Source: Candidatus Uhrbacteria bacterium
GTDB taxonomy: Bacteria > Patescibacteriota > Patescibacteriia > JACQRZ01
NCBI GenBank assembly: GCA_016206155.1
Contig: JACQSC010000001.1
Span: 5,105-69,104, forward strand
Direction of reading: 5' to 3'
DNA length: 64,000 nucleotides
Part shown: in pieces, positions 3,477-43,011 of the stretch
How positions within the stretch are numbered: the stretch's first letter is position 1
How the letters are laid out: each line of letters starts with the position of its first letter
Made by a program: the position numbers and the translations under genes
Notes under the pieces: generated by a model
The model's input: only the letters and a program-made list of their open reading frames with translations
Database searches by the model: none
What the model was told of the DNA's origin: nothing

Positions 3477-3504
3477 GTTATATGGATTAGGGACTAGTAT
3501 TTAC

Positions 3505-3533
3505 TAACCCCTAACCCCTAACCCCTAACCCCT
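3505..3533. repeat. (CCCCTAA)x3.5 telomere-like heptamer array; G-rich complement could form a G-quadruplex
   Basis: taacccctaacccctaacccctaacccc lies between the convergent/adjacent genes; an inverted TTAGGG partial copy sits at 3487-3492. Confidence 0.8.
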
Positions 3534-3536
3534 TGT

Positions 3537-4247
3537 TTGATGCAAGCAGTTATTTTAGCAGCCGGTGAAGGCAAGCGTCTTCGCCCCCTCACCAACGATC
3601 ACCCTAAGCCGATGGTGCTTGTGGGCGGAAAACCAATTCTCGAATATACATTGAGCATCTTGCCCAATATCATCGACGAGGTCATTCTTGTCGTTGGCTA
3701 CAAACAGGAAAAAATAAAAGAATATTTCGGCGATGCGTGGCAAGGGCGGCGTCTACAGTATGCGGATCAGCCCGAGCCAAAGGGGACCGGTGATGCGTTG
3801 GTCCGTGCGCGACCGTTTTTGAACGGCGAACCGTTTTTGATGCTCTTTGCCGATGATCTATATCACCCCGACGATTTAGCTACACTCGTTGAGAGCGAAC
3901 ATCCCGCGATTCTTGTGAAAGAACATGAACAGCCCGAACGGATGGGGGTGTGTACGGTGTCAGACGACGGAACACTGCTTGAGTTGGTTGAGAAGCCGGC
4001 ATTTCCATTAGGCAACCTCGTGAACGTCGGCCCTTCTTTTCTGCACCATGATATTTTTGATCTTGCAATCCACGAACCACTGCTGGCAAATGGCGAGAGC
4101 TGCCTTCCAGAACAAATCGCACGGTTGGCAAAAATACGTACGGTAAAGGCGGTGCGTGCGCGATTCTGGCATCCGATCGGGTATCCGGAAGATCTCAAGT
4201 CTGCGCGCACACACCTTGAAAAAAGTTTGGAAGACCGAACCAACTAA
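3537..4247 (+). CDS. sugar-1-phosphate nucleotidyltransferase (NTP_transferase family)
   Basis: N-terminal motif AVILAAGEGKRLRPLT..PKPMV typical of G1P thymidylyl/uridylyltransferases. Confidence 0.75.
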   Translation: MMQAVILAAGEGKRLRPLTNDHPKPMVLVGGKPILEYTLSILPNIIDEVILVVGYKQEKIKEYFGDAWQGRRLQYADQPEPKGTGDALVRARPFLNGEPFLMLFADDLYHPDDLATLVESEHPAILVKEHEQPERMGVCTVSDDGTLLELVEKPAFPLGNLVNVGPSFLHHDIFDLAIHEPLLANGESCLPEQIARLAKIRTVKAVRARFWHPIGYPEDLKSARTHLEKSLEDRTN

Positions 4248-23922: not shown

Positions 23923-24006
23923 AGGGTATAGCGTTTAGGGTACAGGGTATAGGGGGGGGGAATTCTCTTCTAAACCCTAAACCCTAAACCCTAAACCCTA
24001 AACCCT
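23923..24006. repeat. inverted heptamer arrays: G-rich TTTAGGG/AGGGTAYA block followed by (CCCTAAA)x4
   Basis: gggtatagcgtttagggtacagggtataggggggggg ... ctaaaccctaaaccctaaaccctaaaccctg; the two halves are mutually complementary. Confidence 0.8.
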
Positions 24007-26377: not shown

Positions 26378-26609
26378 TGTCACTATATACCACGACTTAC
26401 AGCAGGCGCGGGGGAAACGGTGACTGTCCCCGTTTCTACCCCGTTTCTACGACGGCTTATGGTTGAAAGAGTTATGCACAGCCGTTGCTTCTTGACGCCG
26501 TTTTTATCTGCTATACTGGTGGCATGAGGAAATTTTTCTCTCACATTTTTTATTCATACACACGGTGAAGACGCGTAAGTCTTCATTTTTATTTATGTCA
26601 AGAAACACT

Positions 26610-29600
26610 ATGACAAGAAAAGCGCATGCGTTCGTCTCAAAGGTCCTGTATCCGATAACGATTGCGTCAATGGTTCTGTGGTCCTTGGGTCCGGCGGCGT
26701 TTCCGGTGCCGGCATACGCGGCAATCACCAGAAACGAGGCTGTAGCGCTTGCGACAGGCGCTCAGAGCCTCGGTGTGTCAAGCAGCCCTACGGCGGTTTT
26801 TGGCTTGAACCTTAATATAAGCGCCGGAGAGACATTTTCCCGCGCGCGGGTGGTTATTGATCCAAGCAATAGTTTTGATCCATCAGGAGACCTGGCGGCG
26901 ATTGCGCCCGGCGCCACATCTGGCATTGAGCTATATGACGACGCCGGTGCGACAAGCGGATCATTTGATGCGACCGATCAGGCAATTATCAGCAATAATT
27001 CCATTATTCAGAATCCGCGATTTTCAAAATTAGCGCTTGGCGCCAATATTCTGACACTTGATCCAAACGTTGACACCACCCTTCCCTATATGCAGGGACA
27101 GCTGGTTTTTGCAAACGTGACGGCAAATGCGGCTTCAACAGGGGCTTATGCGTGGCACATCGTGACGGCGAACGGAACGGGAACCGGGGCGGGAACGACA
27201 TTGCGCCTTGACGGGAACACAACCGCCGCGCCGACCTTTTTGGCAAGCTCCCGTCTATCCATGATTGATACGCCTGCGTTTGGGAGCGGTTCGTTTACCA
27301 TTAATGGAACGTCAAACACAACCACCTATGCCTCAACGGCCGCAACCGCGTCGCTTGGTGATATCATTTATTATCAGACAGGTACAACGGCCGGACGCTG
27401 GGGGGTCGTAACTACGAATTTTAATGTAACGGCAGCTTCGGTGAACGGCGCAAATCTTGCGAATGGTACGTACAAAATAGCAAAATTTCCGAGCATTACA
27501 GGTTCATTTGTCGTTCCTGCAAGCGGCAGTTTCACGCCGACTGGTGCATACGGAACGACGACAACGCCCGTTGTCGGTGATCTTGTTCTTTTCCAGCAGG
27601 GAACAGGCGATGCGCGATGGGGCATGGTTACAAACAATACGTTGTCGGGGGGTTCATTTGCCATTAACGGTATGACGCTTGCGGCAGGAACCTATCGGAT
27701 TAGCACCCTTGATACAAGCGGGGGAAACCAAATGGGATTCCAAACCGCGCTCATGAACAACACCTCAATGTCAATGGCGTTGGGCGAACTTTCATTCGTT
27801 TTGACAACACAGAATCCTGCAGCGACTGATTATGGCTGGCACATTACAACTACGGGAGCAACGGGTGTGAGTGGCGCCGGCGCAGGAACGTTGCGGCTTG
27901 ACAATGCAACAGCTGCTCCAACATACGGATGGACCGCATCACTTGTGCCAGATATCGCACAAGCAGTTGCCGCAGATGAGCTCGGCGCGAACGAAGGAAA
28001 TGATTACTTTGTCGCAATCCGAACATCTGCCGGCGCGCAAAATGGACGGGCAGTTCGATTTATCATGAATCCTGGTGATATTGTGTTCAGCGCAAACACG
28101 CCCACCACAACGCCAACGCTTGTTTCCTCGCCGACCTATACTGTCTCGACAACCGCCCAGCAGTCGCAGTCGGCAGGGGCTAACACTACGGTCATGGACA
28201 TGACCAACGGATTTTTGCGACTGAAACAAAGCAGTAATTTTAAGGCAGTTGCGCGTGTTCAGTTTGGCAGTACCGATGCAGCAAAAACCCTGACATCCAT
28301 TGCGATTTCTTTTGCCACTGCAAACAGCACAACGCCGACGTGGACCGCAAGCGCGGCAACATCATCTGAACTCCTTGATCTTGCCGCAACCGGTGGAGGT
28401 ATTTCACTGTGGAAAGACGGCGGATCGCCCGGATTCGGTTTGAATGGCGCAGGCGATACGCAAGTGACACTTGCGGCAAGCCCGGTATATGGCGCAAGCA
28501 ATGCCTTTACCATTACTCCTGCAACAGCGCCGACCATCGCGTCGGATGATGTGTACTTTATCGTACTGAAATCCGATACGTCCGGTGTGACAAACAATAA
28601 TGCGTTTACCGTGAACATGGCAACAAACGCAATTACTACAAGCGGTACATCGCCGACAATCGGCGTATTCTCAACACCGCCGATTGCCATGGATACCACC
28701 GCGCCGACGATTGCAAGCGTATCTGACGTTCCCGGACAATCAACGAAGTTGAGCGTTCGATTCAGCGAGCCGGTGCAGAAAATTAACGCGGCCGGAGCAC
28801 TCACAACAACTGATTTGACCTATACAAATGACGCAACAGACGGATCAGGACGGACCGTGAGCTCGATTTCCCATAATCCGGGCGCGGATATTGCTGAACT
28901 CACCATGAGCGGCGCGCTTGTGGCCGGCGATTTTGACGGAACGCCGTCATCTCTTGCCGCCGGAACAAGTAAGATTGAGGATATGGCGGGCAATGTCATG
29001 GGAACAACAGCGCGCAATCTTGGCAGTCCCCTGATCATTACAACCTCGGTTATTCCTGCGACGTATGTCGGATCGGTCTATGACGCCACAACGCCGCTTG
29101 TCACATTTGCGGCATCCGGCGGAACAGGAGCAAAGACATTTTCAGGAAATACGCAAGCAGATACAGACGCGCTTGTCGCGCTTCTTGGCGCAAGTCCCCT
29201 TGCCGGGGCTACGGGAAAGCTCACGGGTACGGTTCAGCAAAATACCGCAGGAACCAGGAATGTGACGATAAAGGTGACCGATGGCGTAGCCGCAACAGCA
29301 ACAAAACAATTTACGATTAATGTCGCTGCAACGCAAGGAGGCGATGTTCCAGGATTGACAAATGTCACGCCGCCGTCAGGCTCGCAGGGCGCTACAAACC
29401 TATCAGTCGCCATCACCGGCACGAACACAAGCTTTACCAGCGCCAGCGCGGTTGCCTTTCTATTGAATGGAACGGCCGACACCAATATTACAGTCGGAAC
29501 AGTTACCGCAAATAGCGCAACATCCATAACGGTTCCCGTTACAATTGCGGCGGGCGCGGCAACCGGCAGTCGTGATGTGCGCGTGACAACCGGCAATCAA

Positions 29601-32600
29601 GTAGTCATTATGCCAAGCGGATTTAATGTCACCGGCGCGGTCGCGGCAGGGCTCAACCTTGTGTTCCCGACTGATTCGGCAACAGGCATTCAACTGCCCC
29701 AGCCGGGATTTAATTTTAATCCATCAACAAATACCACATTCACTCATTATCGCATTGTATTGAGCGCAACTCAGGATTTTGCAACGGCGCTGTGGAACTA
29801 TGTTTTTCCAAAGCCGGATACGCTTGGCACGAACGGAAGCCATTGCAGTGCGACATCGTGTAATGTGAACTATTCAGCGGGAAATTTTCTCACAATCACT
29901 CCCGCTTCGACGCTCACATCAAATACAACCTACTACTGGAAAGTTGAAACCTATCAGGATCCAACACCGACAACGCAGTTCGCGTCTACGGATGTCATTG
30001 AGCTGAACAGGCGGGAAAACACGCCGGTGCGAAGTTTTACAACCTCGGCTTCTGTGACGGATGTTCAGCCGCCGCAAATAGAACATCGTCCAATTGTTCA
30101 GGCGCGCGCAAACGCGGTAGCTACCGTGTACGCGCGTGTACTAGACAATGTTGCAAACGCGAACACAACGCCTGCCCTTGCCACAACATTGTCTGCCTGT
30201 GCCGGTACCGGATGCACGCCTTCGACATCAACACTGCCAAGCGCAAGCGCGACTGATGGCGTTGTCGCCGGAACGCTTGCGCAGAACGGATACTATAGTT
30301 ATGTTCTTCCCTCCGCGTTTATTACCGCGACTGTCGGAACGGTTGTGCGGTATTATATCACCGCTTCTGACGGTACCAATACGAGCAATTTTTATCAGTC
30401 GGGCGGGACAACGCCGTTTCAGTTCACAACTACGGCGGCTATCGCAACCAGCGGTGTCACGATTACCGGTACGGTAAAAGATACCAGCGATACGTGCGCC
30501 ACCGGCGTGCAGGGCGCGCTTGTGTTTGCCGAAGGGAGCGGGTTCAGCGCGACAACAGGCGCGGACTGCGCCTACACACTGGGTGCGGCAAATAACGGAT
30601 TGGCCGTAGGATTCCCATATGATCTTGTTGTCGCGAGGGATGGATACTCAACCCAGCGGAGAGATGCCGTTTTGGCAGGGTCAACAAGCGTTGCGGTCCA
30701 ACTGGGGCAGGGCGCTACCGGCGGTTTTGGTGGAGATACCACACGGCCCCGTGTACTGCGCTCAATGCCCGGTGACAAGATGCAGAATATGCCAGGAAAT
30801 GATTCAAACATGAGGATTTTGGTTGTGTTTGATAAACCAATGAGCCAGTCGTCGGTATTGACAAACGGCAACATGGTGGTCAATTCCGTGAATGTTCAGA
30901 CAGGGGTTCTTACAAACATTACCCCAAACGGATCATGGGCATATTACTCAACCTATACCATGCCGTTTGGCGGGACAGAATCAAATGTCGCGGTATGGTC
31001 GTTTACCGGCACAAATACATTCGGTGACAACAAGACCATTGCCGTAAAAGTGACGCCGAGTGTTACTGATTCATCAGGGAATGCAGTGCAGGGGAACCTT
31101 ACTGACGGGAGTTATTCGTTTTCGTTCACAACCGGATCAACCGCAACATCCGTTGGTTTTAACACGGCAACCGGAACGTTTGCCGATGGCGGAGTGTTCG
31201 GTCAGGGTCAAAATATCGCGCCGCACGTGACGACCACTGCGCCGTCCATGGGTTCGCCAAGCGTACCGCGCAATACGAAAATCATGATTAATTTCGACAC
31301 CTCAATGGCCGATGATGCCGCTGGTACGTATACGCTTGCAAGCGCGGTGAAGCTGTTTGAGGTGTCCTCGGCAGGCGCCGAAACAGACGTCACATCATCG
31401 GCAATAAACGCCGTCACGCTTACATCTGATAAAATGGCCGCAACTGTTACACTGAAAACAACCTATCCAAGCGCTTGCACAGGCGCGTCCTGTGGCGTGT
31501 TTAAGGCAACCACCCGTTATCGCCTGAAGGTGCTTGGGTCGGCAAAAGCCGCAAATGGCATGACCATGCGCGCCCCGGGACAGGAAACGCAAGTGGCGTT
31601 TATGAGCGACTTTACAACATCCGCGTCATCCGACACGGTCGCGCCAACTATTGTCGGATCTGATCCGACGACGAACGCGACCGACGTTCCCTCGATGCTC
31701 GGGTCTGTGAGCGTGTCATTTGATAAGGATATGGATTCCTCATCGCTTACGACTTCAACGATGACTCTGACGACCGGCTCAACAGCGGTTACTGGAACGG
31801 TTGATTATCGACCGATGGAGCGAACCGCGTATTTTATTCCTTCGCGCGTTTTGACGCCGACAACGCAATACACGCTCACTCTCACTGCGGGGGTTCGAGG
31901 AATCAATGGCACGGCAATTGCGGCGGCAACGCGCGCGTTCACAACCGGATCTGCCGACACGTCCGCGCCTACTGTCACATCACTGACCGCGGATGACACA
32001 AACATCTCAATATCATTCAGCAAACCGATGAACTCATCGCCGGCAACCGATACGACAAACTTTACGTCAAGCGTATTGCGTGTTGCCAGCTACACGGTGA
32101 AATACGGAACAGCAGGGTTCAACGCGGCAACTGCGGGTACAACGCTTACACTTCCAGCAACAGCACAGATTAGCTATGACGGGAAGAACAATTCTGTGAT
32201 GATTTCAGGATACCGCCCGACGAGTACCACTGCGGCACAAGTTCAGGGACAACAATTATATGTTGCGGTTGCAAACGCAAAGGACATCGGCGGCAACGCG
32301 ATTAGCACATCAGGGACTGCTCCGGATACGGCAAATACCAGCCGCGCAACCGTGCAGAATAGCGCGACGACCCAAGGGCAACTTGGGCCGATGACCATTA
32401 CCAATGACATGATGAAGGCGGTTGGTGATTTCAAGCCAATCACATTTTCCTCCGCAACATTCGGATTTGCGCCGCAAACAGAAGTACGACCGTTCAATAT
32501 GATGACCGGCACCACCACAATTTACGGCGTGCATTTGTCTCTCTCACGGCAAATACCGGATGGAGGCGCCATCGTGCTTACCTTCCCGCAAGGGTTTAAT

Positions 32601-35600
32601 GTATCCGGCGCAAAACAGGATATCAACTCTCCGAAACGCCGCGACATAAACGGGCCTGGCACAGGCACGGTCACGTTCAAGTGTCAGACGAACGTCGCGG
32701 GAATGTCGGCGAAATCCTGCGGAGGCGGCGCGGCAAATGCAGATGATACCGGAACCGCGCAAGGCGGCCTTGCCGATGACGGTGTGGTGGTAAACGCCAA
32801 CGCGCGAACCATTACCATTTATGTGAGCGGGGCAACCAATAGCGAAGGACATGATGTTCTTGATTTTGACATCGCGGGCATCGTTAACTCAACCGTTCCA
32901 AAGGACTTCAACACGACCGGCTATACCGTCAGCATCGCGACAAAGAACGGTACGACAAATCTTGAAACACTGAGCTCCGTGCCATTTTTTATCCAGTCGG
33001 CAGGGACTACCACCTATACGCTCACCGGAACGATTACGGCGACAAACAACGATCAAAACGGGACAATATCGGTATTCCTTGACTCGCCGATGACCGGCCC
33101 GCTTGAGGCAACGTCCGCGGATTTTGCCGGCGGGCAAACAGCAACATATTCATTTACCAATCTTCCGCCCGGTGATTATGGATTGAGAACAGAACCGTAC
33201 GTAAAGATTAATGATACGACTGAATTCCTTGGGAAATTTCCTGAGCGTGTGATGATGAGCGCAAACACCGTGCGCAATTTTACGCTCTCAAGCGCAACTG
33301 CCGCAGGCACCGGAACCTCCGTGACCGTTTCCGTAGACGGACCCTCAAGCGAACCCATTGATATTTTCGCAAATGGCCCGGCCGGATTCCGCGTAATGCA
33401 AAAGACGCTTGATACCAATGCCGGCGCTGAAAACTTTACGATTCGCCTGTCAAATGGCGATTGGTTCCTTGGCGTCGGACCGCAAATGCCAAAAGGACAG
33501 ATGTCTGGCCCGCCGCCTTCGCCGAGCTATCTCCCGCCGCGGCCGGTCAATATCCGTATTAACGGCGGTGTATGTACCATTGAGGGAACTGAGACGTGCA
33601 CCAAGGCATTCACGTTGACCGCATCAACAAAACAAATACGTGGCGTTGTAAAGGATCTTGCGAATAAAGTTATTGCAAACGCGGAAGTGTATGCGTATTC
33701 TCCCGCGGGAGCATCAATGGGAAACTTCGCGAAAACAGATACGACAGGAACGTTCATCCTGAACATCACCGAAGGCGTATTTAATGTCGGCGCCATGATT
33801 CAGGGTATGCCGCCTTCAAAAGAAGTGCCGGTTGAGGTAACAAGCCACACTACGACCTATCTCAAGATAGACGGAGCCCAAGCAGCGATTAGGCCTGACG
33901 CGGCCGCGACGGCGTTCGTGTTGAAACTCGCAAAGCCTGATTATACGATTTCGGGAAAAGTGACTGACGGAACAAATGTCATCAATGGAGCGTCAGTGTA
34001 TGCGTATAAGCAGGGGGCGCCGGGACACGCAACGGCTCCGACAGATAGCTCCGGCAATTATTCACTCTTCGTGTCAACGGGTACATGGAAGGTCGGGGTC
34101 TTTTTGCCGAAATACGGAAATCTTACGGAACAGACCGTCACAGTCACAACGGCAAATGCGACTGACATCAATTTCTCACCAACAGGAACCGGAACATTCT
34201 ATGCCGTGTCAGGAACCGTGACTGTTGGCGGCGTTGCCCGAGAGGGGGCGCAGGTGCGTATTAAGAACAGCGGCTATTTTAATGACACACGTACCGATTC
34301 ACTTGGCGCGTACAGTTTTAATGTGCCGCAAGGGACAGGATACATTGTTGACGGATTTGTGCCGGGTGTAGGAGAGCTCGCGCCATTGACGGCATTTGAT
34401 GTTTCAGCAGCAGTTGAGAACAAAAACCTTACGGTCGCGACGTTGCGCACCATCACCATGACATTCTCCTCATCGGTGGCAAATGCGTTTGTTGAACTTC
34501 GCTCAACAACAGGATCAAACATTAGAAAGCAGATAAAGAATTCGACAACCGGAACGCTGTCCGCGCCTGACGGGAGCTATATCGTGAATGTCGATCTTCA
34601 GGGCGCGCCGATTCCGTTTACAGCCGTTGCCGCAACTGACGGAAATACAACATACGCAAGCGCAACGGGCGTTGTGACGGTGAATGGCGATGAGGGCCTT
34701 ACGGTTACAGTTCCCACCCTTCGAGCGCTTACCATTACTGTTCAAGATGGATCAAGTGTGGCACTGGCAGATGCATGGGTTGAACTTATGAATCCGACCA
34801 GCGGTGAACATTTCGGAAGCAAAACAGGAACAAATGGTCAGGCAACACTGCGCGCGGCTGACGGCACATACTTTATTAATGCAATGAAACCGGGGTATTA
34901 CCGTGCGCCGACATCGCTTACGGTGAGCGCGAACGCAGCCCAGACACTTACGCTTACGGCAGCGACACGAACCATAGCAGGAACCGTATATATCGGATCA
35001 ACGGGTGCCGCGAATTCGTTTGTACGCGCCGAAAAGCAGGGTGGCGGGTTTGGCGGAGCAATGACAGACGCAAACGGACAGTATACGCTCTCTGTGGCAG
35101 AAGGAATATGGAGAGTATTCGCAAAAGCTGAAGGATATGCGGAAGCGGAACTGAGCGCCACCGTTGATACAACAACCGCATCGGCGACCGGCAAAGATAT
35201 TACCCTTACTACAACCGTTACGGTGTCAGCGCCTAAGTCAAAGCCGATGACGCCGTCAACCGGCGGCAGTATTGAAGATACATCAGCAGGCATTAAAGTG
35301 AATGTGCCGGCAAACGCGCTTGGCAGTTCATCGTCAGCCGGAAACATGCAGGTAAAGAAAACAACGAACTTTACCAAAACAGAAACCGCGCGACCGGTCG
35401 CGGCAGTAGAGATTAGCGCGACTGACGCAAATGGCACGCCGATCAAAACATTGACAGAAAGCGTAACAGTTGAATTGAGTTACACAAAAGCAGAACTCGC
35501 GACAACAGCATCCTCTTCAGATACATCCATTAATACAAAGTCAGAAATTGAAAAACTCGATGTTGGGTTCTGGGATGAATCGGTATCAAACTGGACGACC

Positions 35601-37775
35601 TTGCCAACTACGACTACATATGTGGATTCAGCCGGTGCGGTTGTTACAAGTCCGTCAGAAGATCTTTCAAATGTCGCAAGTGTGAAATTAAGCGCGCTTA
35701 CCGATCACTTCTCCTTGTTCGCGCCGGTAGTCCCGACCGATCCGTCAGCGCCATCAACGCCAACAAACTTCGCGACAGGCACGGCGACAACAACAACGAT
35801 TGTCCTTGGGTGGTCCGTCGTATCCGGCGCGACCGGCTATAACATCTACCGGAGCACAAGCTCGACAGGAACATTTAGCCGCCTTGGTTCAGAGCCAACG
35901 GTTTCTAGCGGTTCGACTGGCACGTATACTGACAGCGGACTGTCCGCGAGTCAAACGTTCTACTACAAGATTTCTGCGTTGAACAATAACGGCGAATCTG
36001 CCGCGTCTAGCGCCCTGTCCGCAACATCAGCCGCCACAACGTCATCGAGTACAAGCTCTGGGGGTGTTGTCTCAAGTTCGAGCTCTTCCTCACAAACGAC
36101 AACCACCACCACGACAGCAACAGCCATTACCGCAACAAATGTCTCTGTTACCAACACAAACACGGTTGCCGTGGTGACAAAGGGCATAACAGCAAGCACA
36201 CTGGGTGTTTCGGCGATTAACGCGGCCAACCTTGAGGTAAAGCAAACCGGAGCGGCAACAACGGCAACAACGGAAAAGAAGGATGTCGCGGCGCAGCAGC
36301 TCAAGGACATGAAGAGCGTTGATGCGACCGAGAAAAAAGCTCAAGATGCTTTGGCAACTCTCGAGAGTATGGTCACAAAAGGTACGGTCGCCCCTCTCGC
36401 GCTTTCGCAGAACGTGACACGCTATGAGGTAAAAGAGAAGACAACCGGAAAGACCGCCTCGGTTACGCGCGTCGAACAACTGTTTGCGCCGACAAAGGAC
36501 ACCAAAGATGTTACGATTGTGATGACGGTTCCAAAGTCAGTGGCAGAGCGCGCTTCATTGCTTACGTTCACGGGTGTTCAGCCGGAAGTTTTGCAGGATG
36601 ATCCCATCCTTCGCTGGACCTTTGCTGAAGTAAAGGCAGGAGAAACAAAGGATTTGTCCTATCAGGCAAACAAAAATCTTGAGAAGCTTGAAGTAAAGAA
36701 TGTCGCCGTCGCCGCAGTGCCAGCATTCGTAGAGATGGCATGGGGCTTCAAGGATGGCAAATTCCAACTGATGCCAAAGACCGAAGCCGATGCCTTGCAT
36801 GCAGCGGCTGAAGCATCCGCCGCCGCTAAAGCTCCGGCGAGAGAAGAGAAGAAAGCTGAAGTTTCCCTTGAGAAAAAAGCCGCAGCCATGCCGGCAAAAG
36901 CGGCAGCGAAGCCGCTGGTAGCGGTAAAAGCACTGCCACATCTTTCGGCGAAGGCGGCAAAAGTTGTGACCAACGTACTAAAGCGCAGCGCTATCATTCT
37001 TCTGCCTGAGGCAAAGGGAGCGGCCTATTATCTCGACCCAAAGACGCAAAAACGGGCATCCCTCGGCCGTCCTGCAGAGGCATTTGAGGTGATGCGTTCG
37101 TTCGGAATCGGTATCACAAATAATGACCTTGAAAAGATTCCGGAAAGCACCAAAGAGGGCGATACGGCATTCGCCTGTAAGCACGCCGGTAAGATTTTCT
37201 TGCAAGTCCAGGCAAAAGGCGAGGCATGGTATGTGCATCCCGAGAATTGCAAGCGCTACTTCCTCAATCGTCCGGCCGATGCCTTTAATCTCATGCGCAA
37301 GCTTGCGCTTGGTGTCTCCAATGCGGACGCAGACGCGATTCCGACAAGCGAGAAGTCAAAACCGGTAACGCCTGCTACACCGGCGCAACCCGCACAGCCA
37401 AAAGAAGATCCAAAGAAGGCATCAGACAAACTTTCGCCCCTCGCGCGTCCATTGTATAGCGGCATGAAAGGGGATGATGTCAAAACGCTTCAGACCATTC
37501 TTACGCAGAAGGGATACTATACCGGTACAGTTTCTGGCACTATGGACGAGGCAACTTTTACAGCGGTGCGCCAGATGCAGTTAAAAGAGGGTCTGGTGAA
37601 GAGTGTGGCTACTCCCGGGTATGGCACCGTCGGTCCAGCAACTCGCGCATTTGTCAACAAGCTCTTACAAGTGGAGCCCGAACCGAAAAAGGAAACAACT
37701 CCAGCTGCGCCGAAGCAAAGCGAAGGCGAGGGTGAAAGCGCGCTTGATAAGCTCAAGCGACTTATGAAACAGTAA
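26610..37775 (+). CDS. giant (~3.7 k aa) secreted cell-surface protein with Ig-like/SbsA-like, carboxypeptidase-regulatory-like and FN3 domains, a Ser/Thr linker, two GEAWY repeats and a C-terminal PG_binding_1 domain
   Basis: Signal peptide MTRKAHAFVSKVLYPITIASMVLWSLGPAAFPVPAYA; repeated ..APTI.S..P..GATDV blocks; four GxV.D...A..GA.V-type beta-sandwich repeats; FN3 motif (W..V.GATGYNIYRS); C-terminal LYSGMKGDDVKTLQTILTQKGYY..DEATFTAVRQMQ. Start taken at the third in-frame ATG; the annotated 5' end overlaps a hairpin. Confidence 0.85.
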   Translation: MTRKAHAFVSKVLYPITIASMVLWSLGPAAFPVPAYAAITRNEAVALATGAQSLGVSSSPTAVFGLNLNISAGETFSRARVVIDPSNSFDPSGDLAAIAPGATSGIELYDDAGATSGSFDATDQAIISNNSIIQNPRFSKLALGANILTLDPNVDTTLPYMQGQLVFANVTANAASTGAYAWHIVTANGTGTGAGTTLRLDGNTTAAPTFLASSRLSMIDTPAFGSGSFTINGTSNTTTYASTAATASLGDIIYYQTGTTAGRWGVVTTNFNVTAASVNGANLANGTYKIAKFPSITGSFVVPASGSFTPTGAYGTTTTPVVGDLVLFQQGTGDARWGMVTNNTLSGGSFAINGMTLAAGTYRISTLDTSGGNQMGFQTALMNNTSMSMALGELSFVLTTQNPAATDYGWHITTTGATGVSGAGAGTLRLDNATAAPTYGWTASLVPDIAQAVAADELGANEGNDYFVAIRTSAGAQNGRAVRFIMNPGDIVFSANTPTTTPTLVSSPTYTVSTTAQQSQSAGANTTVMDMTNGFLRLKQSSNFKAVARVQFGSTDAAKTLTSIAISFATANSTTPTWTASAATSSELLDLAATGGGISLWKDGGSPGFGLNGAGDTQVTLAASPVYGASNAFTITPATAPTIASDDVYFIVLKSDTSGVTNNNAFTVNMATNAITTSGTSPTIGVFSTPPIAMDTTAPTIASVSDVPGQSTKLSVRFSEPVQKINAAGALTTTDLTYTNDATDGSGRTVSSISHNPGADIAELTMSGALVAGDFDGTPSSLAAGTSKIEDMAGNVMGTTARNLGSPLIITTSVIPATYVGSVYDATTPLVTFAASGGTGAKTFSGNTQADTDALVALLGASPLAGATGKLTGTVQQNTAGTRNVTIKVTDGVAATATKQFTINVAATQGGDVPGLTNVTPPSGSQGATNLSVAITGTNTSFTSASAVAFLLNGTADTNITVGTVTANSATSITVPVTIAAGAATGSRDVRVTTGNQVVIMPSGFNVTGAVAAGLNLVFPTDSATGIQLPQPGFNFNPSTNTTFTHYRIVLSATQDFATALWNYVFPKPDTLGTNGSHCSATSCNVNYSAGNFLTITPASTLTSNTTYYWKVETYQDPTPTTQFASTDVIELNRRENTPVRSFTTSASVTDVQPPQIEHRPIVQARANAVATVYARVLDNVANANTTPALATTLSACAGTGCTPSTSTLPSASATDGVVAGTLAQNGYYSYVLPSAFITATVGTVVRYYITASDGTNTSNFYQSGGTTPFQFTTTAAIATSGVTITGTVKDTSDTCATGVQGALVFAEGSGFSATTGADCAYTLGAANNGLAVGFPYDLVVARDGYSTQRRDAVLAGSTSVAVQLGQGATGGFGGDTTRPRVLRSMPGDKMQNMPGNDSNMRILVVFDKPMSQSSVLTNGNMVVNSVNVQTGVLTNITPNGSWAYYSTYTMPFGGTESNVAVWSFTGTNTFGDNKTIAVKVTPSVTDSSGNAVQGNLTDGSYSFSFTTGSTATSVGFNTATGTFADGGVFGQGQNIAPHVTTTAPSMGSPSVPRNTKIMINFDTSMADDAAGTYTLASAVKLFEVSSAGAETDVTSSAINAVTLTSDKMAATVTLKTTYPSACTGASCGVFKATTRYRLKVLGSAKAANGMTMRAPGQETQVAFMSDFTTSASSDTVAPTIVGSDPTTNATDVPSMLGSVSVSFDKDMDSSSLTTSTMTLTTGSTAVTGTVDYRPMERTAYFIPSRVLTPTTQYTLTLTAGVRGINGTAIAAATRAFTTGSADTSAPTVTSLTADDTNISISFSKPMNSSPATDTTNFTSSVLRVASYTVKYGTAGFNAATAGTTLTLPATAQISYDGKNNSVMISGYRPTSTTAAQVQGQQLYVAVANAKDIGGNAISTSGTAPDTANTSRATVQNSATTQGQLGPMTITNDMMKAVGDFKPITFSSATFGFAPQTEVRPFNMMTGTTTIYGVHLSLSRQIPDGGAIVLTFPQGFNVSGAKQDINSPKRRDINGPGTGTVTFKCQTNVAGMSAKSCGGGAANADDTGTAQGGLADDGVVVNANARTITIYVSGATNSEGHDVLDFDIAGIVNSTVPKDFNTTGYTVSIATKNGTTNLETLSSVPFFIQSAGTTTYTLTGTITATNNDQNGTISVFLDSPMTGPLEATSADFAGGQTATYSFTNLPPGDYGLRTEPYVKINDTTEFLGKFPERVMMSANTVRNFTLSSATAAGTGTSVTVSVDGPSSEPIDIFANGPAGFRVMQKTLDTNAGAENFTIRLSNGDWFLGVGPQMPKGQMSGPPPSPSYLPPRPVNIRINGGVCTIEGTETCTKAFTLTASTKQIRGVVKDLANKVIANAEVYAYSPAGASMGNFAKTDTTGTFILNITEGVFNVGAMIQGMPPSKEVPVEVTSHTTTYLKIDGAQAAIRPDAAATAFVLKLAKPDYTISGKVTDGTNVINGASVYAYKQGAPGHATAPTDSSGNYSLFVSTGTWKVGVFLPKYGNLTEQTVTVTTANATDINFSPTGTGTFYAVSGTVTVGGVAREGAQVRIKNSGYFNDTRTDSLGAYSFNVPQGTGYIVDGFVPGVGELAPLTAFDVSAAVENKNLTVATLRTITMTFSSSVANAFVELRSTTGSNIRKQIKNSTTGTLSAPDGSYIVNVDLQGAPIPFTAVAATDGNTTYASATGVVTVNGDEGLTVTVPTLRALTITVQDGSSVALADAWVELMNPTSGEHFGSKTGTNGQATLRAADGTYFINAMKPGYYRAPTSLTVSANAAQTLTLTAATRTIAGTVYIGSTGAANSFVRAEKQGGGFGGAMTDANGQYTLSVAEGIWRVFAKAEGYAEAELSATVDTTTASATGKDITLTTTVTVSAPKSKPMTPSTGGSIEDTSAGIKVNVPANALGSSSSAGNMQVKKTTNFTKTETARPVAAVEISATDANGTPIKTLTESVTVELSYTKAELATTASSSDTSINTKSEIEKLDVGFWDESVSNWTTLPTTTTYVDSAGAVVTSPSEDLSNVASVKLSALTDHFSLFAPVVPTDPSAPSTPTNFATGTATTTTIVLGWSVVSGATGYNIYRSTSSTGTFSRLGSEPTVSSGSTGTYTDSGLSASQTFYYKISALNNNGESAASSALSATSAATTSSSTSSGGVVSSSSSSSQTTTTTTTATAITATNVSVTNTNTVAVVTKGITASTLGVSAINAANLEVKQTGAATTATTEKKDVAAQQLKDMKSVDATEKKAQDALATLESMVTKGTVAPLALSQNVTRYEVKEKTTGKTASVTRVEQLFAPTKDTKDVTIVMTVPKSVAERASLLTFTGVQPEVLQDDPILRWTFAEVKAGETKDLSYQANKNLEKLEVKNVAVAAVPAFVEMAWGFKDGKFQLMPKTEADALHAAAEASAAAKAPAREEKKAEVSLEKKAAAMPAKAAAKPLVAVKALPHLSAKAAKVVTNVLKRSAIILLPEAKGAAYYLDPKTQKRASLGRPAEAFEVMRSFGIGITNNDLEKIPESTKEGDTAFACKHAGKIFLQVQAKGEAWYVHPENCKRYFLNRPADAFNLMRKLALGVSNADADAIPTSEKSKPVTPATPAQPAQPKEDPKKASDKLSPLARPLYSGMKGDDVKTLQTILTQKGYYTGTVSGTMDEATFTAVRQMQLKEGLVKSVATPGYGTVGPATRAFVNKLLQVEPEPKKETTPAAPKQSEGEGESALDKLKRLMKQ

Positions 37776-37992: not shown

Positions 37993-38766
37993 ATGTCATC
38001 CTATTACAAAGGCAAACGATCACGAAACATCTTTGATCCTTTATCTCATGAGCCCTTTAGGGTCTCTCGTTCCAAGATCGAGCTTTTTTCCTCCTGCCCC
38101 CGTTGTTTTTATATCGACGTGCGGCTTGGTGTTGGCCAGCCTCCGGGATTTCCCTTTAATCTCAACTCCGCAGTTGATACTCTTCTTAAAAAAGAGTTTG
38201 ACATACATCGTAGCATGAGCACCGCGCATCCCCTCATGGAGGCGTATGGCCTTGACGCGGTGCCGTTCAGCCACGAGAAAATGGACGAGTGGCGCGATCC
38301 GTTCAAGGGTGTTACGTTTCTCCATGAGCCTACGAATTTTTATGTCACCGGAGGCGTTGATGACGTTTGGCAAAATCCGGAAAAGGAGCTTATCATCGTT
38401 GACTACAAGTCAACAAGTAAGGAAAGCGAGGTAACCATCGATGCGGAGTGGCAGCAATCATACAAGCGCCAGATGGAGATTTATCAGTGGCTCTTTCGCA
38501 ACAACGGTTTCTCCGTATCTGATACGGGGTACTTTGTTTACTGCAACGGCAGGCGCGATGTGGCTGCCTTTGATGGAAAACTTGAATTTGACATTAAGCT
38601 GATTCCCTATACCGGCAGTGACTTGTGGATCGAAAGCGCGCTTGCCAGCATGAAGCAACTACTCATGGCAGATGTGGTCCCTGAACCGGGCGACTGCTGT
38701 GATTTTTGTACCTATCGCCGCGATGCGCGAGAAGTCTTAACGAAACTCGTAACTCGTAACTCGTAA
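37993..38766 (+). CDS. PD-(D/E)XK nuclease, Cas4/RecB-like (solo, no cas neighbours)
   Basis: N-terminal Cys motif (C-X2-C) plus C-terminal CCDFC for an Fe-S cluster; IIVDYKS (D..K) and QMEIY (QhxxY) motifs. Confidence 0.6.
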   Translation: MSSYYKGKRSRNIFDPLSHEPFRVSRSKIELFSSCPRCFYIDVRLGVGQPPGFPFNLNSAVDTLLKKEFDIHRSMSTAHPLMEAYGLDAVPFSHEKMDEWRDPFKGVTFLHEPTNFYVTGGVDDVWQNPEKELIIVDYKSTSKESEVTIDAEWQQSYKRQMEIYQWLFRNNGFSVSDTGYFVYCNGRRDVAAFDGKLEFDIKLIPYTGSDLWIESALASMKQLLMADVVPEPGDCCDFCTYRRDAREVLTKLVTRNS

Positions 38767-38840
38767 CTCGTAACTCGTACAGGGATTGGGAGGCGTCGTT
38801 TTTCCAAATTACAAGTTACGGATTACGAGTTACTGATTAC
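38744..38840. repeat. (CGTAACT)x5 heptamer array followed by inverted AGTTACG copies
   Basis: actcgtaactcgtaactcgtaactcgtaactcgtac ... caagttacggattacgagttactgattac; overlaps the stop codon of the Cas4-like gene. Confidence 0.8.
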
Positions 38841-38846: not shown

Positions 38847-39848
38847 ATGGTTCTCCTCAAACTCCTCCTCATCTTTTGTTCCCTGGGCGGTTTTTTGCTT
38901 TCGTTGTATATTTTTCATAAAAAGCATCGACACGAAAAAATGTTGTGTCCCATCGGGGGGAAGTGTGAGGCAGTTCTTGCCAGCCAATACAATCGCTTCT
39001 TTGGCATTCCGCTTGAAACCATCGGACTGTTTTATTATGGCGCTGTCTTTATCTTCTCAACCGTGCGCGCGGTTATGGGGGGCGACCCCTTTCCTCTCAT
39101 ATCATTTGCGGTATTCGGCCTGACTATTACGGCATTTTTATTTTCTCTCTATCTCACCTTTATCCAGGCGTTCACGCTCAAGCAATGGTGCACGCTCTGC
39201 CTGACATCCGCCGCTCTGTGCACCATCATTTTTACGAGCACATTCATGACCTCTCAGCAGTCGTTCGTTGCGCTCTTGGGCGCCTACCAACCTCTGGTCA
39301 GCGCATTCTATCTCCTTGCGCTTGCCGTTGGACTTGGATGCGCGACCGTGACTGATGTGTTCTTTTTGAAGTTTCTCCGAGACTATCACATTTCTCAAAG
39401 CGAATATGATGTTCTCTCAACCCTCGCGCAAATGATGTGGGCATCACTCGCGGCGATTATCGTTGCCGGGGTTGGCCTGGCGCTCGGTGCGCCCGATGGA
39501 TACCAACTGCCCCACTCGATGTTCGTAAGCTGGATCGTATTGCTTGTCATTCTCATCAATGCGGCGGTTTTGAATCTTATTGTTGCGCCAAAGCTTCTTC
39601 ATATTTCTTTCCGCGAGAAACATGATCATGAAACGGGAGAGCTTGGCATCATTCACAAGCTTGCGTTTGAGTTGGGCGCCGTGTCTGTTGTTTCATGGTA
39701 TTTCGCCTTTTTTCTTACCGTTATTCCTGATACCGGGTACTCGTTTTTTGCGTTGAGCATATGGTACGGCGTGCTGGTCGTCGTCGGCGTTGCCGTTGGC
39801 CGACTTTTCGAGTATCGCATACGCCAATCTTCAAGAACAGCCGTATGA
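38847..39848 (+). CDS. vitamin K epoxide reductase (VKOR) family membrane protein with a C-terminal membrane extension
   Basis: Loop cysteines CPIGGKC and CTLC active site in a 4-TM core. Confidence 0.6.
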   Translation: MVLLKLLLIFCSLGGFLLSLYIFHKKHRHEKMLCPIGGKCEAVLASQYNRFFGIPLETIGLFYYGAVFIFSTVRAVMGGDPFPLISFAVFGLTITAFLFSLYLTFIQAFTLKQWCTLCLTSAALCTIIFTSTFMTSQQSFVALLGAYQPLVSAFYLLALAVGLGCATVTDVFFLKFLRDYHISQSEYDVLSTLAQMMWASLAAIIVAGVGLALGAPDGYQLPHSMFVSWIVLLVILINAAVLNLIVAPKLLHISFREKHDHETGELGIIHKLAFELGAVSVVSWYFAFFLTVIPDTGYSFFALSIWYGVLVVVGVAVGRLFEYRIRQSSRTAV

Positions 39849-42793
39849 ATGATATTTCAAAGCGCGAAGAAGATGTCTTGAGGTTCTGGGAAGAGCATCA
39901 TATCTTCAGAAAATCAGTTGACCAGCGTCCGGTAGAAAAGCCGTACGTTTTTTATGACGGGCCGCCATTCGCAACCGGTTTGCCGCACTATGGCCACCTC
40001 ATCGCATCGTTGATGAAGGATGTCGTCCCGCGCTACTGGACCATGAAAGGGTATCGGGTCGAGCGCGTATGGGGATGGGACTGTCATGGATTGCCAATTG
40101 AAAATATCATTGAGGAGAAGCTCGGACTCAAAACAAAAAAAGATATTGAAAGTTATGGCATCGATAGATTTAACACCGCTTGCCGTTCAACGGTATTGCA
40201 ATTTGCCGATGAATGGAAAAAAACGATTCGCCGATATGGACGATGGGTTGATATGGAGCGTGCGTATAACACCATGGACCGCTCATATATGGAAAGTGTG
40301 TGGTGGGTATTCTCCGAGCTCTGGAAGAAGGGGCTGATCTATGAGGGGAAAAAGCCCATGCACATCTGTCCGCGCTGCGCAACGCCACTTTCGAACTTTG
40401 AGGTGACCCTTGGTTACAAAGACATCAAGGACATCTCCGCAACCGCAAAGTTTCGATTGACCAACGCGGCAGAGAAGCTCGGACTTTTCGGCGACGTTTT
40501 TTTGTTGGCGTGGACAACGACCCCCTGGACACTGCCGGGTAATGTGCTCTTGGCGGTAGGAAGAGAAATTGACTATGGCATATTCAAAAATGGCCAAGGC
40601 GAACATATCATCTTGGCAAAAAATGCCTTGGACCATTACCAATCATTCGCCGGAAAAGACTATAGATATGTCAAAACCGTCAAAGGCGAAGGATTGGTCG
40701 GGTTGAACTACGAGCCGCTTTTTCCTTATTATACAAACAGTGTGCGTGCCTTTCGTGTCGTGGCTGGTGATTTTGTAACGACAGATGAAGGAACTGGCGT
40801 GGTGCACATTGCGCCGGCGTTTGGCGAGGACGACTTTGCGATTGCCGAGAAAGAATGTACCGGATTCATCCAGCATGTGACACTCGAGGGGACGTTCGTA
40901 CCCGAGGTGAGTGATTTTGCCGGCATGCCGGTCAAGCCAAAGGAAGATCCGACGCGCGCCGATGTTGAAATTATAAAATATCTTGCAAAACATGGCAGGC
41001 TTTTTGCAAAAGAAAAAATAGAACACAGCTATCCCCATTGTTGGCGGTGCGATACGCCCCTGCTCAATTACGCAACAAGCAGTTGGTTTGTGCGGGTAAC
41101 GGAGCTGAAAAAAGATCTCTTGACAGCCAACAAACAGACATCATGGGTTCCAGAACACATGAAGGATGGAAGGTTCGGCAAATGGCTTGCCGGCGCGCGT
41201 GACTGGGCGATTTCCCGCAACCGCTACTGGGGAACGCCATTGCCAATGTGGAGAAGCCAGGACGGCGAGGTGGTCTGTGTTGGAAGCGCGCGCGAGCTTG
41301 AGGAGCTTTCCGGGCATGCTATCGACGATCTTCACAAGGATGCGGTTGATGCTATCACATTTGAAAAAGACGGAAAGCTGTTTATGCGCATCCCCGATGT
41401 GCTCGATTGCTGGTTCGAGTCAGGATCGATGCCGTACGGACAAATGCACTATCCTTTTGAGAATAAGGAAAAATTCGAGCAGGGATTTCCCGCTGAGTTC
41501 ATCGCCGAAGGGCAAGATCAGACGCGTGGCTGGTTCTACACCCTGCATGTGCTTGCGGTTGCGCTGACGCGCGGAAAACAGCCATCGATTCCGCTGCGCG
41601 GCCCACTGCCGGCATTCAGGCACGTCATCGTTAACGGCATTGTGTTGGCTCAGGATGGCAAGAAGATGTCAAAAAAACTAAAAAATTATCCAGACCCTAT
41701 GGAGGTCATATCGAGATACGGCGCAGACGCCATGCGGTTCTATCTTGCCGCATCGCCTGCCATGCATGCGGAGAATTTGAATTTTTCCGAAGGTGGCGTT
41801 CGCGAGATGTATAATAAATGCGTCAATACCGTATGGAATATCGCGCAATTTTATACAATGTTTGCATCATTTCCTCACGCGCGGCTCGATCCGCGGGCAT
41901 TCCCCCATATTCTTGATCGCTGGATTCTTTCGCGCCTGCACAATACGCTCAAAAAAGTAACCACACATCTCAATGCCTACGAACTTGCGCAGAGCACGCG
42001 GCCGCTGCTGGAGTTTATTAGCGACTGCTCGCAGTGGTATGTGCGCCGTTCGCGCGAACGGTTTAAGGGTGAGATGTCAGAGGATCGCGGACAGGCGCTT
42101 GCAACATTACGCGAGGTCTTGTGCGTGCTTTCTAAGATCATTGCGCCGTTTACGCCATTTTTGGCTGAAGCGATACATCAAGGGTTAAGGGTTCAGGGTT
42201 CAGGGTTCAGCAAGGTGGAGTCTGTGCATTTAGAGCAATGGCCCGACTGGGACAATGCGTTTATCGACGAGAATCTCGAACGTGATATTGAGGATGCGCG
42301 CAGCATTGTCGAGATTGCGCACGCCCTTCGCGCGGAGGCGAACATGAAGGTGCGTCAGCCGCTTTCAACGCTCGTGTGTTCACAGCCGTTGCCGCGCGCT
42401 TTTCTGGATATGATTGCTGAGGAAGTAAATGTCAGAGAGGTTGTTGTAAAACCCAACCCAAAAGGAGGGGAGGGGTGGCATCTCAGGAGCGAAAAGAACC
42501 TGGCCGTTGCGCTGAACACAACCCTGACCGCAGAACTTGAAGAAGAGGGGGTGGTGCGCGAGATGATCCGCACCGTGAATGCATTGCGAAAAAAACGTGG
42601 ACTGACGATCCATGACATGGTTTCGTTTTGCTATTATACCGACGATCCGCGCCTTACAGATCTCATCGATCGCCATAGAGAAAAAATCGCAAAAAGTATT
42701 TTAGCAGAATCGCTTCGGTTGAAAAAAACAGCGTCAATGGATGAGCTGTCTGTGGGCGATCAAAAGGTTTTCATTTCCTTGAGTGTGACATGA
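39845..42793 (+). CDS. ileS: isoleucine--tRNA ligase (type 2, no C-terminal zinc finger)
   Basis: PPFATGLPHYGH (HIGH), GWDCHGLPIE, KMSKKLKN (KMSKS); start at ATG 39845, overlapping the upstream stop by ATGA. Confidence 0.9.
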   Translation: MNDISKREEDVLRFWEEHHIFRKSVDQRPVEKPYVFYDGPPFATGLPHYGHLIASLMKDVVPRYWTMKGYRVERVWGWDCHGLPIENIIEEKLGLKTKKDIESYGIDRFNTACRSTVLQFADEWKKTIRRYGRWVDMERAYNTMDRSYMESVWWVFSELWKKGLIYEGKKPMHICPRCATPLSNFEVTLGYKDIKDISATAKFRLTNAAEKLGLFGDVFLLAWTTTPWTLPGNVLLAVGREIDYGIFKNGQGEHIILAKNALDHYQSFAGKDYRYVKTVKGEGLVGLNYEPLFPYYTNSVRAFRVVAGDFVTTDEGTGVVHIAPAFGEDDFAIAEKECTGFIQHVTLEGTFVPEVSDFAGMPVKPKEDPTRADVEIIKYLAKHGRLFAKEKIEHSYPHCWRCDTPLLNYATSSWFVRVTELKKDLLTANKQTSWVPEHMKDGRFGKWLAGARDWAISRNRYWGTPLPMWRSQDGEVVCVGSARELEELSGHAIDDLHKDAVDAITFEKDGKLFMRIPDVLDCWFESGSMPYGQMHYPFENKEKFEQGFPAEFIAEGQDQTRGWFYTLHVLAVALTRGKQPSIPLRGPLPAFRHVIVNGIVLAQDGKKMSKKLKNYPDPMEVISRYGADAMRFYLAASPAMHAENLNFSEGGVREMYNKCVNTVWNIAQFYTMFASFPHARLDPRAFPHILDRWILSRLHNTLKKVTTHLNAYELAQSTRPLLEFISDCSQWYVRRSRERFKGEMSEDRGQALATLREVLCVLSKIIAPFTPFLAEAIHQGLRVQGSGFSKVESVHLEQWPDWDNAFIDENLERDIEDARSIVEIAHALRAEANMKVRQPLSTLVCSQPLPRAFLDMIAEEVNVREVVVKPNPKGGEGWHLRSEKNLAVALNTTLTAELEEEGVVREMIRTVNALRKKRGLTIHDMVSFCYYTDDPRLTDLIDRHREKIAKSILAESLRLKKTASMDELSVGDQKVFISLSVT
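42181..42210. repeat. in-frame G-quadruplex-type repeat GGGTTAAGGGTTCAGGGTTCAGGGTTCAG inside ileS
   Basis: Four GGG tracts with 4-nt spacers; encodes GLRVQGSGFS. Confidence 0.7.
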
Positions 42794-42883: not shown

Positions 42884-42916
42884 AACCCCTAACCCCAAAC
42901 CCCAAACCCCAAACCT
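42884..42916. repeat. C-rich heptamer array (CCCCTAA/CCCCAAA variants) downstream of ileS
   Basis: taacccctaaccccaaaccccaaaccccaaacc. Confidence 0.8.
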
Positions 42917-43011
42917 ATGGCCCCCCAAAAAAAGAAAAAGCAGACAACCGGCATCAAGCTGCCAAAGCTCGTTCGCCACACCAAGAAAGCAAAACGGAAG
43001 TAATTTATTTT

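Follow-up and report, generated by a model that had tools for sequence, protein, structure and literature searches.

Heptanucleotide Repeats in Bacteria and the Array under Study

The present work concerns a tandem array of the heptanucleotide AGGGTTC that lies in frame in the gene coding for the isoleucyl-tRNA synthetase (IleRS) of a Candidatus Uhrbacteria bacterium (assembly GCA_016206155.1), within a stretch of 64,000 nt of contig JACQSC010000001.1 (positions 5,105 to 69,104; hereafter, the window). It is probable that this segment represents a heptanucleotide simple-repeat array of the same kind as the others of this genome, tolerated in an unconstrained surface loop of the enzyme.

Among the described systems, the TAACTGA direct repeats are found in 2–6 copies in Beggiatoaceae, cyanobacteria, and some Bacteroidetes, mostly a few nucleotides ahead of start codons at which a canonical ribosome-binding site is missing; because every frame of the forward orientation contains stops, thirteen sets run over the stop codon that ends the preceding gene. 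A few reverse-orientation sets lie inside open reading frames (ORFs), outside functional domains (MacGregor 2015, PMC4679880). The arrays of the window resemble this type in being numerous, head-to-tail repeats of 7 nt, adjacent to start codons or overlapping stop codons, with a minority in ORFs and in the stop-free orientation. Moreover, one in-frame array of another IleRS gene (locus L207) consists of the heptamer ATCAGTT, which complements that of the TAACTGA repeats. Unlike the TAACTGA type, however, the host belongs to the Patescibacteria, several units coexist (mostly G3/C3-rich, with no single dominant heptamer), and the copies within ORFs fall in internal loops of an essential enzyme and not at protein termini.

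A second system is represented by the STRR heptamers of cyanobacteria, reportedly described by Mazel and colleagues in 1990. In heterocystous cyanobacteria, STRR heptamers reportedly reside within the gene for the RNase P RNA (Vioque 1997, cited in PMC2858038); in Nostoc, heptamer repeats are found next to or overlapping start codons genome-wide (bioRxiv 10.1101/2022.06.06.494920). The window likewise harbors several distinct and dispersed heptamer families, mostly intergenic and near start codons, and the STRR of the RNase P RNA gene is a precedent for an essential gene that houses arrays in one of its variable parts. The taxon and the units are different, though, and that precedent concerns an RNA helix, not a protein loop under frame constraint.

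Furthermore, a survey of long simple sequence repeats (LSSRs), as far as it is related in a later paper, found heptanucleotides to be the most abundant among the repeats of 5–11 nt, in connection with polymerase slippage and a contact of about 7 nt, and non-triplet units to be rare and largely excluded in coding regions (Mrazek et al. 2007, via PMC4679880). In the loci sampled here and in other Patescibacteria, unlike in that survey as related, about half or more of the arrays are inside long open frames.

Phase-variable heptanucleotide tracts, such as those of E. coli K1 neuO and the promoter repeats of H. influenzae hmw1A, are long and polymorphic and belong to dispensable surface or modification genes. 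The IleRS array shares with them a 7-nt unit in or next to an ORF and a frame that is kept only at three-unit changes; unlike them, it is short and lies in a housekeeping gene. Lastly, Rickettsia palindromic elements (RPEs), that is, palindromic mobile elements of 100–150 bp with a conserved sequence, were reportedly found in frame in protein genes by Ogata and colleagues in 2000. The likeness consists in housekeeping proteins that accommodate in-frame repetitive DNA where their sequence is exposed at the surface and non-conserved; the IleRS array is, however, a 30-nt tandem with no palindrome, and a 49-nt palindrome in the TatD-family gene of the window (60026–60074) is a closer analogue of RPEs.

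A literature search found no paper on heptanucleotide repeats in Patescibacteria. Both the dispersed, above-chance arrays dominated by period 7 and their placement at gene boundaries, which characterize the heptamer-repeat kind, were found in the 64 kb, while neither the unit (AGGGTTC) nor the host (Candidatus Uhrbacteria) matches the published ones (TAACTGA; STRR1 CCCCAAT and others). Since unit and host differ, the IleRS array is assigned to the same kind of repeat but outside the named sequence families.

The AGGGTTC Array and the IleRS Gene

On the + strand of the window, the segment reads A GGGTTAA GGGTTCA GGGTTCA GGGTTCA G. Tandem Repeats Finder (TRF) reported a period of 7, 4.3 copies, 95% matches, and the consensus AGGGTTC, whereas the scan for exact repeats delimited a perfect core of 3.3 units (42188–42210), ahead of which stands a unit that differs at one base (AGGGTTA). 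With 4.3 head-to-tail copies, 3.3 of them exact, the array falls within the 2–6 copies typical of heptamer repeats. The three-unit pattern had no match in 100 dinucleotide-preserving shuffles; similarly, exact period-7 arrays of at least three copies were absent from 200 shuffles of the window, against five observed. These data exclude a chance origin. The 30-base repeat that a previous reading, made on the sequence only, had placed at 42181–42210 is thus real and correctly delimited.

The same reading had the repeat in frame, encoding the peptide GLRVQGSGFS between the AIHQ and SVHLEQWP segments of IleRS. The ORF (39761–42793) runs uninterrupted through the array, with the frame CAA|GGG TTA AGG GTT CAG GGT TCA GGG TTC AGC and the translation ...PFLAEAIHQ-GLRVQGSGFS-KVESVHLEQWP..., so that frame, peptide, and position all hold.

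The gene codes for IleRS. From the methionine at 39845, its product shares 100% identity over 982 residues with an NCBI protein annotated as "isoleucine--tRNA ligase [Candidatus Uhrbacteria bacterium]", on record from one 125-kb contig; identity falls to 80, 73, 73, 71, and 66% in the relatives that come next and to about 60% in many other Patescibacteria IleRSs. The ORF as mechanically called opens at 39761, 28 codons (MVRRAGRRRRCRW...) upstream of the database start; the true start is most likely ATG 39845, which overlaps the end of a VKOR-family gene (38847–39848), so the stretch 39761–39844 most probably lies outside the gene.

A class I catalytic core with HxGH and KMSK motifs, a helical anticodon-binding domain, and a type-2 C-terminal domain in place of the zinc-binding C-terminus of type-1 enzymes define type-2 (eukaryote-like) IleRSs. 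The translation contains the HYGH and KMSKKLKNYPDP motifs, and Pfam recognizes tRNA-synt_1, Anticodon_1 (residues 692–843), and DUF5915. For the 297 C-terminal residues, the structures 8c8u to 8c9d are the best solved relatives (E = 6.5e-43); eukaryotic cytoplasmic IleRSs and the T. thermophilus enzyme (1ile) come next. On these motifs, domains, and structural matches, the type-2 label proposed earlier is reasonable.

The Repeat Occupies a Hypervariable Loop

All 120 Patescibacteria IleRS sequences considered were aligned, and the AlphaFold2 model was built on the same alignment. The flanks of the loop turned out to be invariant or nearly so (A767, P768, P771, F772, and E775 upstream; S793, V794, H795, W799, and P800 downstream), with P771, F772, E775, S793, and H795 strictly invariant, while the stretch between them varies freely both in sequence and in length. 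The commonest form in Patescibacteria, ...YQEL-GGEL-ESVHL, has four residues after the conserved leucine, compared with ten in the protein under study (RVQGSGFSKV) and two in 8c8u; the HMMER alignment to 8c8u opens a gap of eight residues exactly at the repeat. The loop is, therefore, six residues longer than the clade mode and eight longer than that of 8c8u.

The model has a mean predicted local distance difference test (pLDDT) score of 90.6, with a helix at residues 771–784 followed by coil at 785–793; the block 781–790 scores 74, against 96 and 95 in the neighboring ones. The repeat is thus predicted to encode the terminal turn of the helix that closes the anticodon-binding bundle, together with the flexible loop after it. 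Heptamer copies within ORFs are expected at tolerant positions, and this one, in a hypervariable loop with a lower pLDDT, is at such a position.

The DNA of three orthologues was then compared, i.e., L001 (80% amino acid identity), L002 (73%), and L003 (73%), which are all syntenic, with the VKOR gene upstream of IleRS. No repeat was found in the corresponding loop of any of the three, whose codons are unrelated to those of the array and non-repetitive. It had been pointed out that a peptide conserved among orthologues with unrelated codons would speak against a repeat insertion; the unrelated codons of L001–L003 do not go together with a conserved peptide, and this objection falls. The beginning of the loop is still recognizable as homologous (Q-G-L-R, CAA GGG TTA AGG, against Q-E-L-R, CAG GAA CTC CGG, in L002), as is its end (E-S-V-H). 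The deviant first unit, with TTA in place of TTC, keeps the leucine that most aligned sequences have in this column; with a perfect unit, the residue would be phenylalanine.

The loops of L001, L002, and L003 are nine residues long, that of P0006 (66% identity) is ten, and the one carrying the array is ten, with a difference from these four nearest relatives with aligned loops of one residue or none. Within the sub-clade, there is thus essentially no net change in length. The idea of a repeat insertion into an essential gene stands, then, when distant comparators are considered (six residues more than the mode, eight more than 8c8u), but not against the relatives at 66–80% identity. The repeat is lineage-specific and takes the place of other loop sequence, with no length added relative to its own sub-clade. 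A gain of three units, that is, of seven codons, by a short ancestral loop was also considered; it fits 8c8u and the 21-nt perfect core, but it is contradicted by the loops of nine or ten residues in the nearest relatives.

Heptamer Arrays in the IleRS Genes of Other Patescibacteria

A background of 1.35 Mb around IleRS was collected from 80 species-representative genomes, mostly Patescibacteria, among the matches listed by a profile search with the closest IleRS proteins. Among the matches listed, the best IleRS locus is 57% identical, and the exact arrays comprise nine of period 7, six of period 5, four of period 6, two of period 8, and one of period 9; period 7 is thus the commonest of at least 5 nt in this background, at a density about 12 times below that of the window.

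The in-frame IleRS arrays verified on DNA fall in three loops, one of which is that of the repeat under study (Table 1). Some of these genes carry two or three separate in-frame arrays of heptamers or 14-mers in different variable loops; that of L207, besides the array at residues ~841–850, has arrays in two further regions. The units are mutually unrelated, and only that of the window is capable of forming a G-quadruplex (G4). L204 has an additional array in ruvA (8524–8558). In L205, another Uhrbacteria contig, heptamer arrays also flank the IleRS gene (4–94 and 3083–3113): two adjacent ones lie just upstream of its start, and CTAAAAG x4.4 spans its stop, ahead of ruvA.

The periodicity of the 120 IleRS proteins was tried as a proxy for heptamers at the protein level. 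A lag of seven residues had the most matches (42, against 13–36 for other lags); the proxy was dropped as ambiguous, because 21-nt duplications mimic the same signal (for example, at the end of the gene in L002), and the argument counts DNA-verified arrays only.

The exact (AGGGTTC)x4 sequence was retrieved from at least 120 metagenome contigs belonging to heterogeneous organisms, some with long telomere-like arrays or many different heptamers. Several different arrays stand side by side in contigs such as L108, L114, L135, L143, L150, and L171, the last of which includes a telomere-like (AAACCCT)x75. Such matches were set aside as uninformative on where the IleRS array came from. The heptamer-array phenomenon as such is widespread.

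Heptamer Arrays at Gene Boundaries in the Window

Exact arrays of at least three copies in the 64 kb number five, all of period 7, the remaining periods between 5 and 15 being unrepresented; TRF adds two imperfect arrays, at 58818 (CTAAACC x3.3) and 60215 (AGGGTAC-like). All but two lie outside long ORFs (Table 1). Four of them, with C-rich units, end 0–6 nt before a start codon (3533/ATG 3540, 24006/GTG 24007, 42915/ATG 42917, and 58840/ATG 58847), which leaves no room for a Shine–Dalgarno sequence in between, and two (38744 and 58818) extend across the stop codon of the gene that precedes them.

Three arrays have nearby a degenerate, inverted counterpart of their own heptamer array with which they pair, one arm being perfect and the other decayed. 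The resulting long imperfect hairpins are 76–84% complementary, with folding energies of −27 kcal/mol (z = −3.8) for 3463–3538, −45 kcal/mol (z = −5.0) for 23923–24006, and −35 kcal/mol (z = −4.5) for 38744–38840; they could possibly act as terminators or processing sites between genes.

Table 1. Location of the IleRS gene, of the heptamer arrays of the window, and of in-frame arrays in other IleRS genes. Window coordinates are in nucleotides; loop positions are in residues.
Feature	Sequence	Position	Strand	Details
IleRS gene	Window	39845–42793	+	982 aa plus stop; begins with MNDISK...; matches the 982-aa database protein P0001
(AGGGTTC)x4.3 tandem array	Window	42181–42210	+	In frame, G780–S789 (GLRVQGSGFS) of IleRS; exact x3.3 from 42188; G4 pattern at 42182–42205
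Hypervariable loop, codons G780–V791	Window	42182–42217	+	Flanked by the closing helix of the anticodon-binding helical domain (AE.IHQ) and by the conserved ESVHLE.WP motif
(CTAACCC)x4.3, intergenic	Window	3504–3533	+	Exact x4.3; 6 nt before the start codon; degenerate inverted G-rich copy at 3463–3499
(CTAAACC)x5.3, intergenic	Window	23970–24006	+	Exact x5.3; abuts the start codon; degenerate inverted array AGGGTAY at 23923–23954
(AACTCGT)x5.1	Window	38744–38779	+	Exact x5.1; straddles the stop of a PD-(D/E)XK nuclease-like ORF (37993–38766); degenerate inverted copy at 38810–38840
(AACCCCA)x4.6, intergenic	Window	42884–42915	+	Exact x3.6 from 42891; follows the IleRS stop; ends 1 nt short of the ATG that opens the ORF 42917–43006
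(CTAAACC)x3.3	Window	58818–58840	+	Straddles the stop of the ORF 57234–58835; 6 nt before the start codon
Imperfect GGTTTAG GGGACAG GGTTCAG GGTACAG	Window	60210–60237	+	In frame in the TatD-family gene 59850–60722; encodes GLGDRVQGTE
IleRS loop before ILDRW	L007, L058, L204, L206	~673–688		L007 (AGAATTC)x4; L058 (AGAATCC)x4.7 and (GAACCCT)x3; L204 (AGCGTTT)x4.3; L206 (AAGAAAC)x4.3
IleRS loop of the repeat under study	Window, L204, L205, L206	780–792		L204 (AGCTAYC)x5; L205 (TTACAAC)x5.9; L206 degenerate (AGTAATC)x4.9
IleRS loop after VRQPL	L013, L025, L207	~841–850		L013 (TCGATTT)x4.6; L025 (GAATTAA)x4.1; L207 (ATCAGTT)x4.7
Multi-array IleRS gene	L204	4518–4547, 4840–4874, 5030–5056
Multi-array IleRS gene	L207	4960–4991, 5580–5611, 6716–6748
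Multi-array IleRS gene	L206	12018–12047, 12328–12361

The homologous 3' gene end of L003 has a single AACTCGT where the window has the fivefold array at 38744 (...ACC GAA CTC GTG AGA AAC in L003, ...ACG AAA CTC GTA ACT CGT AAC TCG TAA in the window), which shows directly that this array grew from local sequence. Its growth altered the C-terminus of the PD-(D/E)XK nuclease-like protein.

As for the other neighbors, the 29-codon lysine-rich ORF (MAPQKKKKQTTGIKLPKLVRHTKKAKRK) that starts 1 nt after the (AACCCCA) array, which may encode a small basic protein, has no Pfam match. The imperfect array in the TatD-family gene shares the 12-mer AGGGTTCAGGGT with the IleRS array. The same gene carries a perfect in-frame 49-nt palindrome, with 24-nt arms and a 1-nt center, which accounts for about 16 extra residues (...IMGSGAINLMAPDPII...) and is preceded by a 12-nt direct repeat, AATGGGGTCAGG, at 60005 and 60029; it also contains an in-frame 15-nt duplication (60362–60391, ADTVSADTVS). 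Its product is 290 aa long, against 253 positions of the Pfam profile. Finally, a single ORF of 3736 codons (26565–37775, 11.2 kb) takes up one sixth of the window.

Proposed Origin and Persistence of the Array

The unit AGGGTTC is free of stops in all three frames (AGG GTT CAG GGT TCA GGG TTC). In the complement, GAACCCT, each of the frames runs into a stop before three units are completed. Hence, the G-rich strand is the sense strand in the gene under study, and the GAACCCT array of L058 is limited to three units. In L025 (11730–11758) and L204 (4518–4547), the only deviant unit is found where a perfect one would create an in-frame TAA or TAG. These deviant units appear as a clear footprint of selection on repeats that were born perfect; in the array under study, the leucine kept by its only deviant unit is a further mark of selection. 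The data suggest that arrays arise in a near-perfect form, with only the in-frame, stop-free versions persisting in ORFs.

On the reading of the segment as a tolerated simple-repeat array, the following steps can be proposed:

i. Local generation, by the replication slippage or array amplification proposed for heptanucleotide LSSRs, from a seed that would be AGGGTTAAGG, created by the ancestral Q-x-L-R codons (CAA GGG TTA AGG). Local amplification of the IleRS array is here inferred by analogy with the array at 38744.

ii. Selection, which would then have purged the outcomes that were out of frame or contained stops.

iii. Persistence of the array as a harmless segment of a sequence-unconstrained surface loop; its tolerance would come from a length that keeps the frame, an orientation that is stop-free in three frames, and a loop length typical of the sub-clade. 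Both the G4 potential and the encoded peptide would be by-products with no role in aminoacylation.

Several points weigh against this reading. Slippage steps of one unit (7 nt) would shift the frame of an essential gene; a multi-unit, compensated, or conversion event is therefore required, and none was observed. A metagenome scan for copy-number variants (exact flanks, variable gap) gave no matches and hence no population information. Since, in addition, the protein comes from one contig, neither the stability nor the neutrality of the array is established. Moreover, the set of arrays described as genome-wide rests on 64 kb. Lastly, as far as sequence analysis alone can tell, a role for the G4 or for the peptide keeps some probability.

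The alternative that survives best is that the loop received a pre-existing (AGGGTTC)n from elsewhere in a single copying or transfer event, whether by gene conversion, by microhomology-mediated patch repair, or with a selfish mobile mini-element, much as RPEs are inserted in frame. Such an event would avoid the lethal frameshifted intermediates and would agree with a loop whose content was replaced with no change in length compared to close relatives; in addition, the TatD-family gene, with the identical 12-mer in a degenerate array and the in-frame palindrome, shows that small repeat elements do occur within genes of the window, and many metagenomic contigs contain (AGGGTTC)n arrays. Nevertheless, no flanking signatures (target duplications, conserved ends) were found, nor is there an inverted partner or any element structure around the IleRS array; the arrays occupying the same loop elsewhere are made up of unrelated units, and for the neighboring AACTCGT array the local seed is still seen as a single copy in a relative. 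We consider this one-step import rather improbable.

G-Quadruplex Potential and Other Explanations

The segment GGGTTAAGGGTTCAGGGTTCAGGG at 42182–42205 has the form G3N4G3N4G3N4G3 and matches the canonical G4 pattern (four runs of at least three G, loops of 1–7 nt). According to the G-quadruplex model of ViennaRNA, a three-tetrad G4 is predicted in the minimum-energy structure of the mRNA with 40, 70, and 130 nt of context, with −8.4 kcal/mol for the G4 alone. All six matches to the pattern in the window fall in heptamer or heptamer-like repeats. Ordinary RNA folding around the array is unremarkable (z = −0.36), and, unlike the three intergenic arrays with inverted copies, the IleRS array has neither an inverted partner nor an ordinary secondary structure around it.

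These results bear on the possibility that a functional G4, in the RNA or in the non-template DNA strand, pauses the ribosome or the RNA polymerase before the C-terminal domains, tuning the expression of IleRS or its co-translational folding. The canonical three-tetrad motif on the sense strand, its predicted presence in the mRNA structure, and the coincidence of all six matches with repeats are in its favor. This potential is not conserved, though: the motif was not found in the corresponding loop of L001, L002, or L003, the nearest relatives, nor in that of L204, L205, L206, and L207, where the heptamers of other genomes cannot form a G4. Such a function is, thus, very unlikely. The sequence-only reading had presented the segment primarily as a G4 motif; its description of the pattern is sound (present, in frame, and predicted to fold), but the emphasis was misplaced. 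Since the same loops are occupied elsewhere by unrelated units unable to form a G4, and since the arrays of the window itself include AACTCGT and CTAAACC, the property they have in common is the period of 7 nt and not the G4 potential.

Even less credit can be given to a contingency tract, in which the gain or loss of units would switch IleRS on and off by phase variation. A non-triplet unit inside an ORF, with the frame kept only by three-unit changes, does recall the genes controlled by heptanucleotides; on the other hand, IleRS is a housekeeping enzyme with no second copy in the window, quite unlike the dispensable functions through which cells interact with their environment. With 3.3 perfect units, the tract is also short; copy-number variants did not emerge (the protein is from one contig, and the metagenome scan had no matches), and the degenerate arrays in homologous loops (L206) point to decay and not to maintained instability. 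An assembly or sequencing artefact of a metagenome-assembled genome, which the single contig of origin and the proneness of repeats to mis-assembly might evoke, has a negligible probability in view of the intact ORF, the homologous flanks at the spacing of the relatives, the size of the array (30 nt, far below read length), and the equivalent in-frame arrays in independent NCBI, JGI, and Logan assemblies.

A Possible Role of Heptamer Arrays in the Evolution of Patescibacteria Proteins

A broader scenario can be put forward, tentatively and with more doubt than confidence: Patescibacteria in the neighborhood of Uhrbacteria and Magasanikbacteria might possess a process, active throughout the lineage, by which 7-nt arrays are written so as to mark gene boundaries and by which the surface loops of essential proteins are repeatedly rewritten in frame. 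As part of it, the arrays, sometimes as paired inverted hairpins, may stand in place of the Shine–Dalgarno sequence, and three or more hot loops of IleRS may have been rewritten, sometimes several in one gene. If true, this would be a case of protein loop evolution driven by non-triplet repeats, possibly with a translation-start signal, new for the phylum.

As far as IleRS is concerned, its oddity would be a tolerated simple repeat in a loop of free sequence, and neither a disruption nor a regulatory device. Essential ORFs usually do not retain non-triplet repeats; in Patescibacteria, however, a small set of IleRS loops harbors them again and again. They would thus provide a natural map of the loops of this enzyme that tolerate arbitrary sequence, and this recurrent in-frame occupation by unrelated heptamers is of greater interest than the single array. 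The findings would also extend the heptamer-repeat phenomenon from cyanobacteria and Beggiatoaceae to Patescibacteria, where the start-adjacent arrays and the paired-array hairpins represent candidate expression signals in unculturable organisms.

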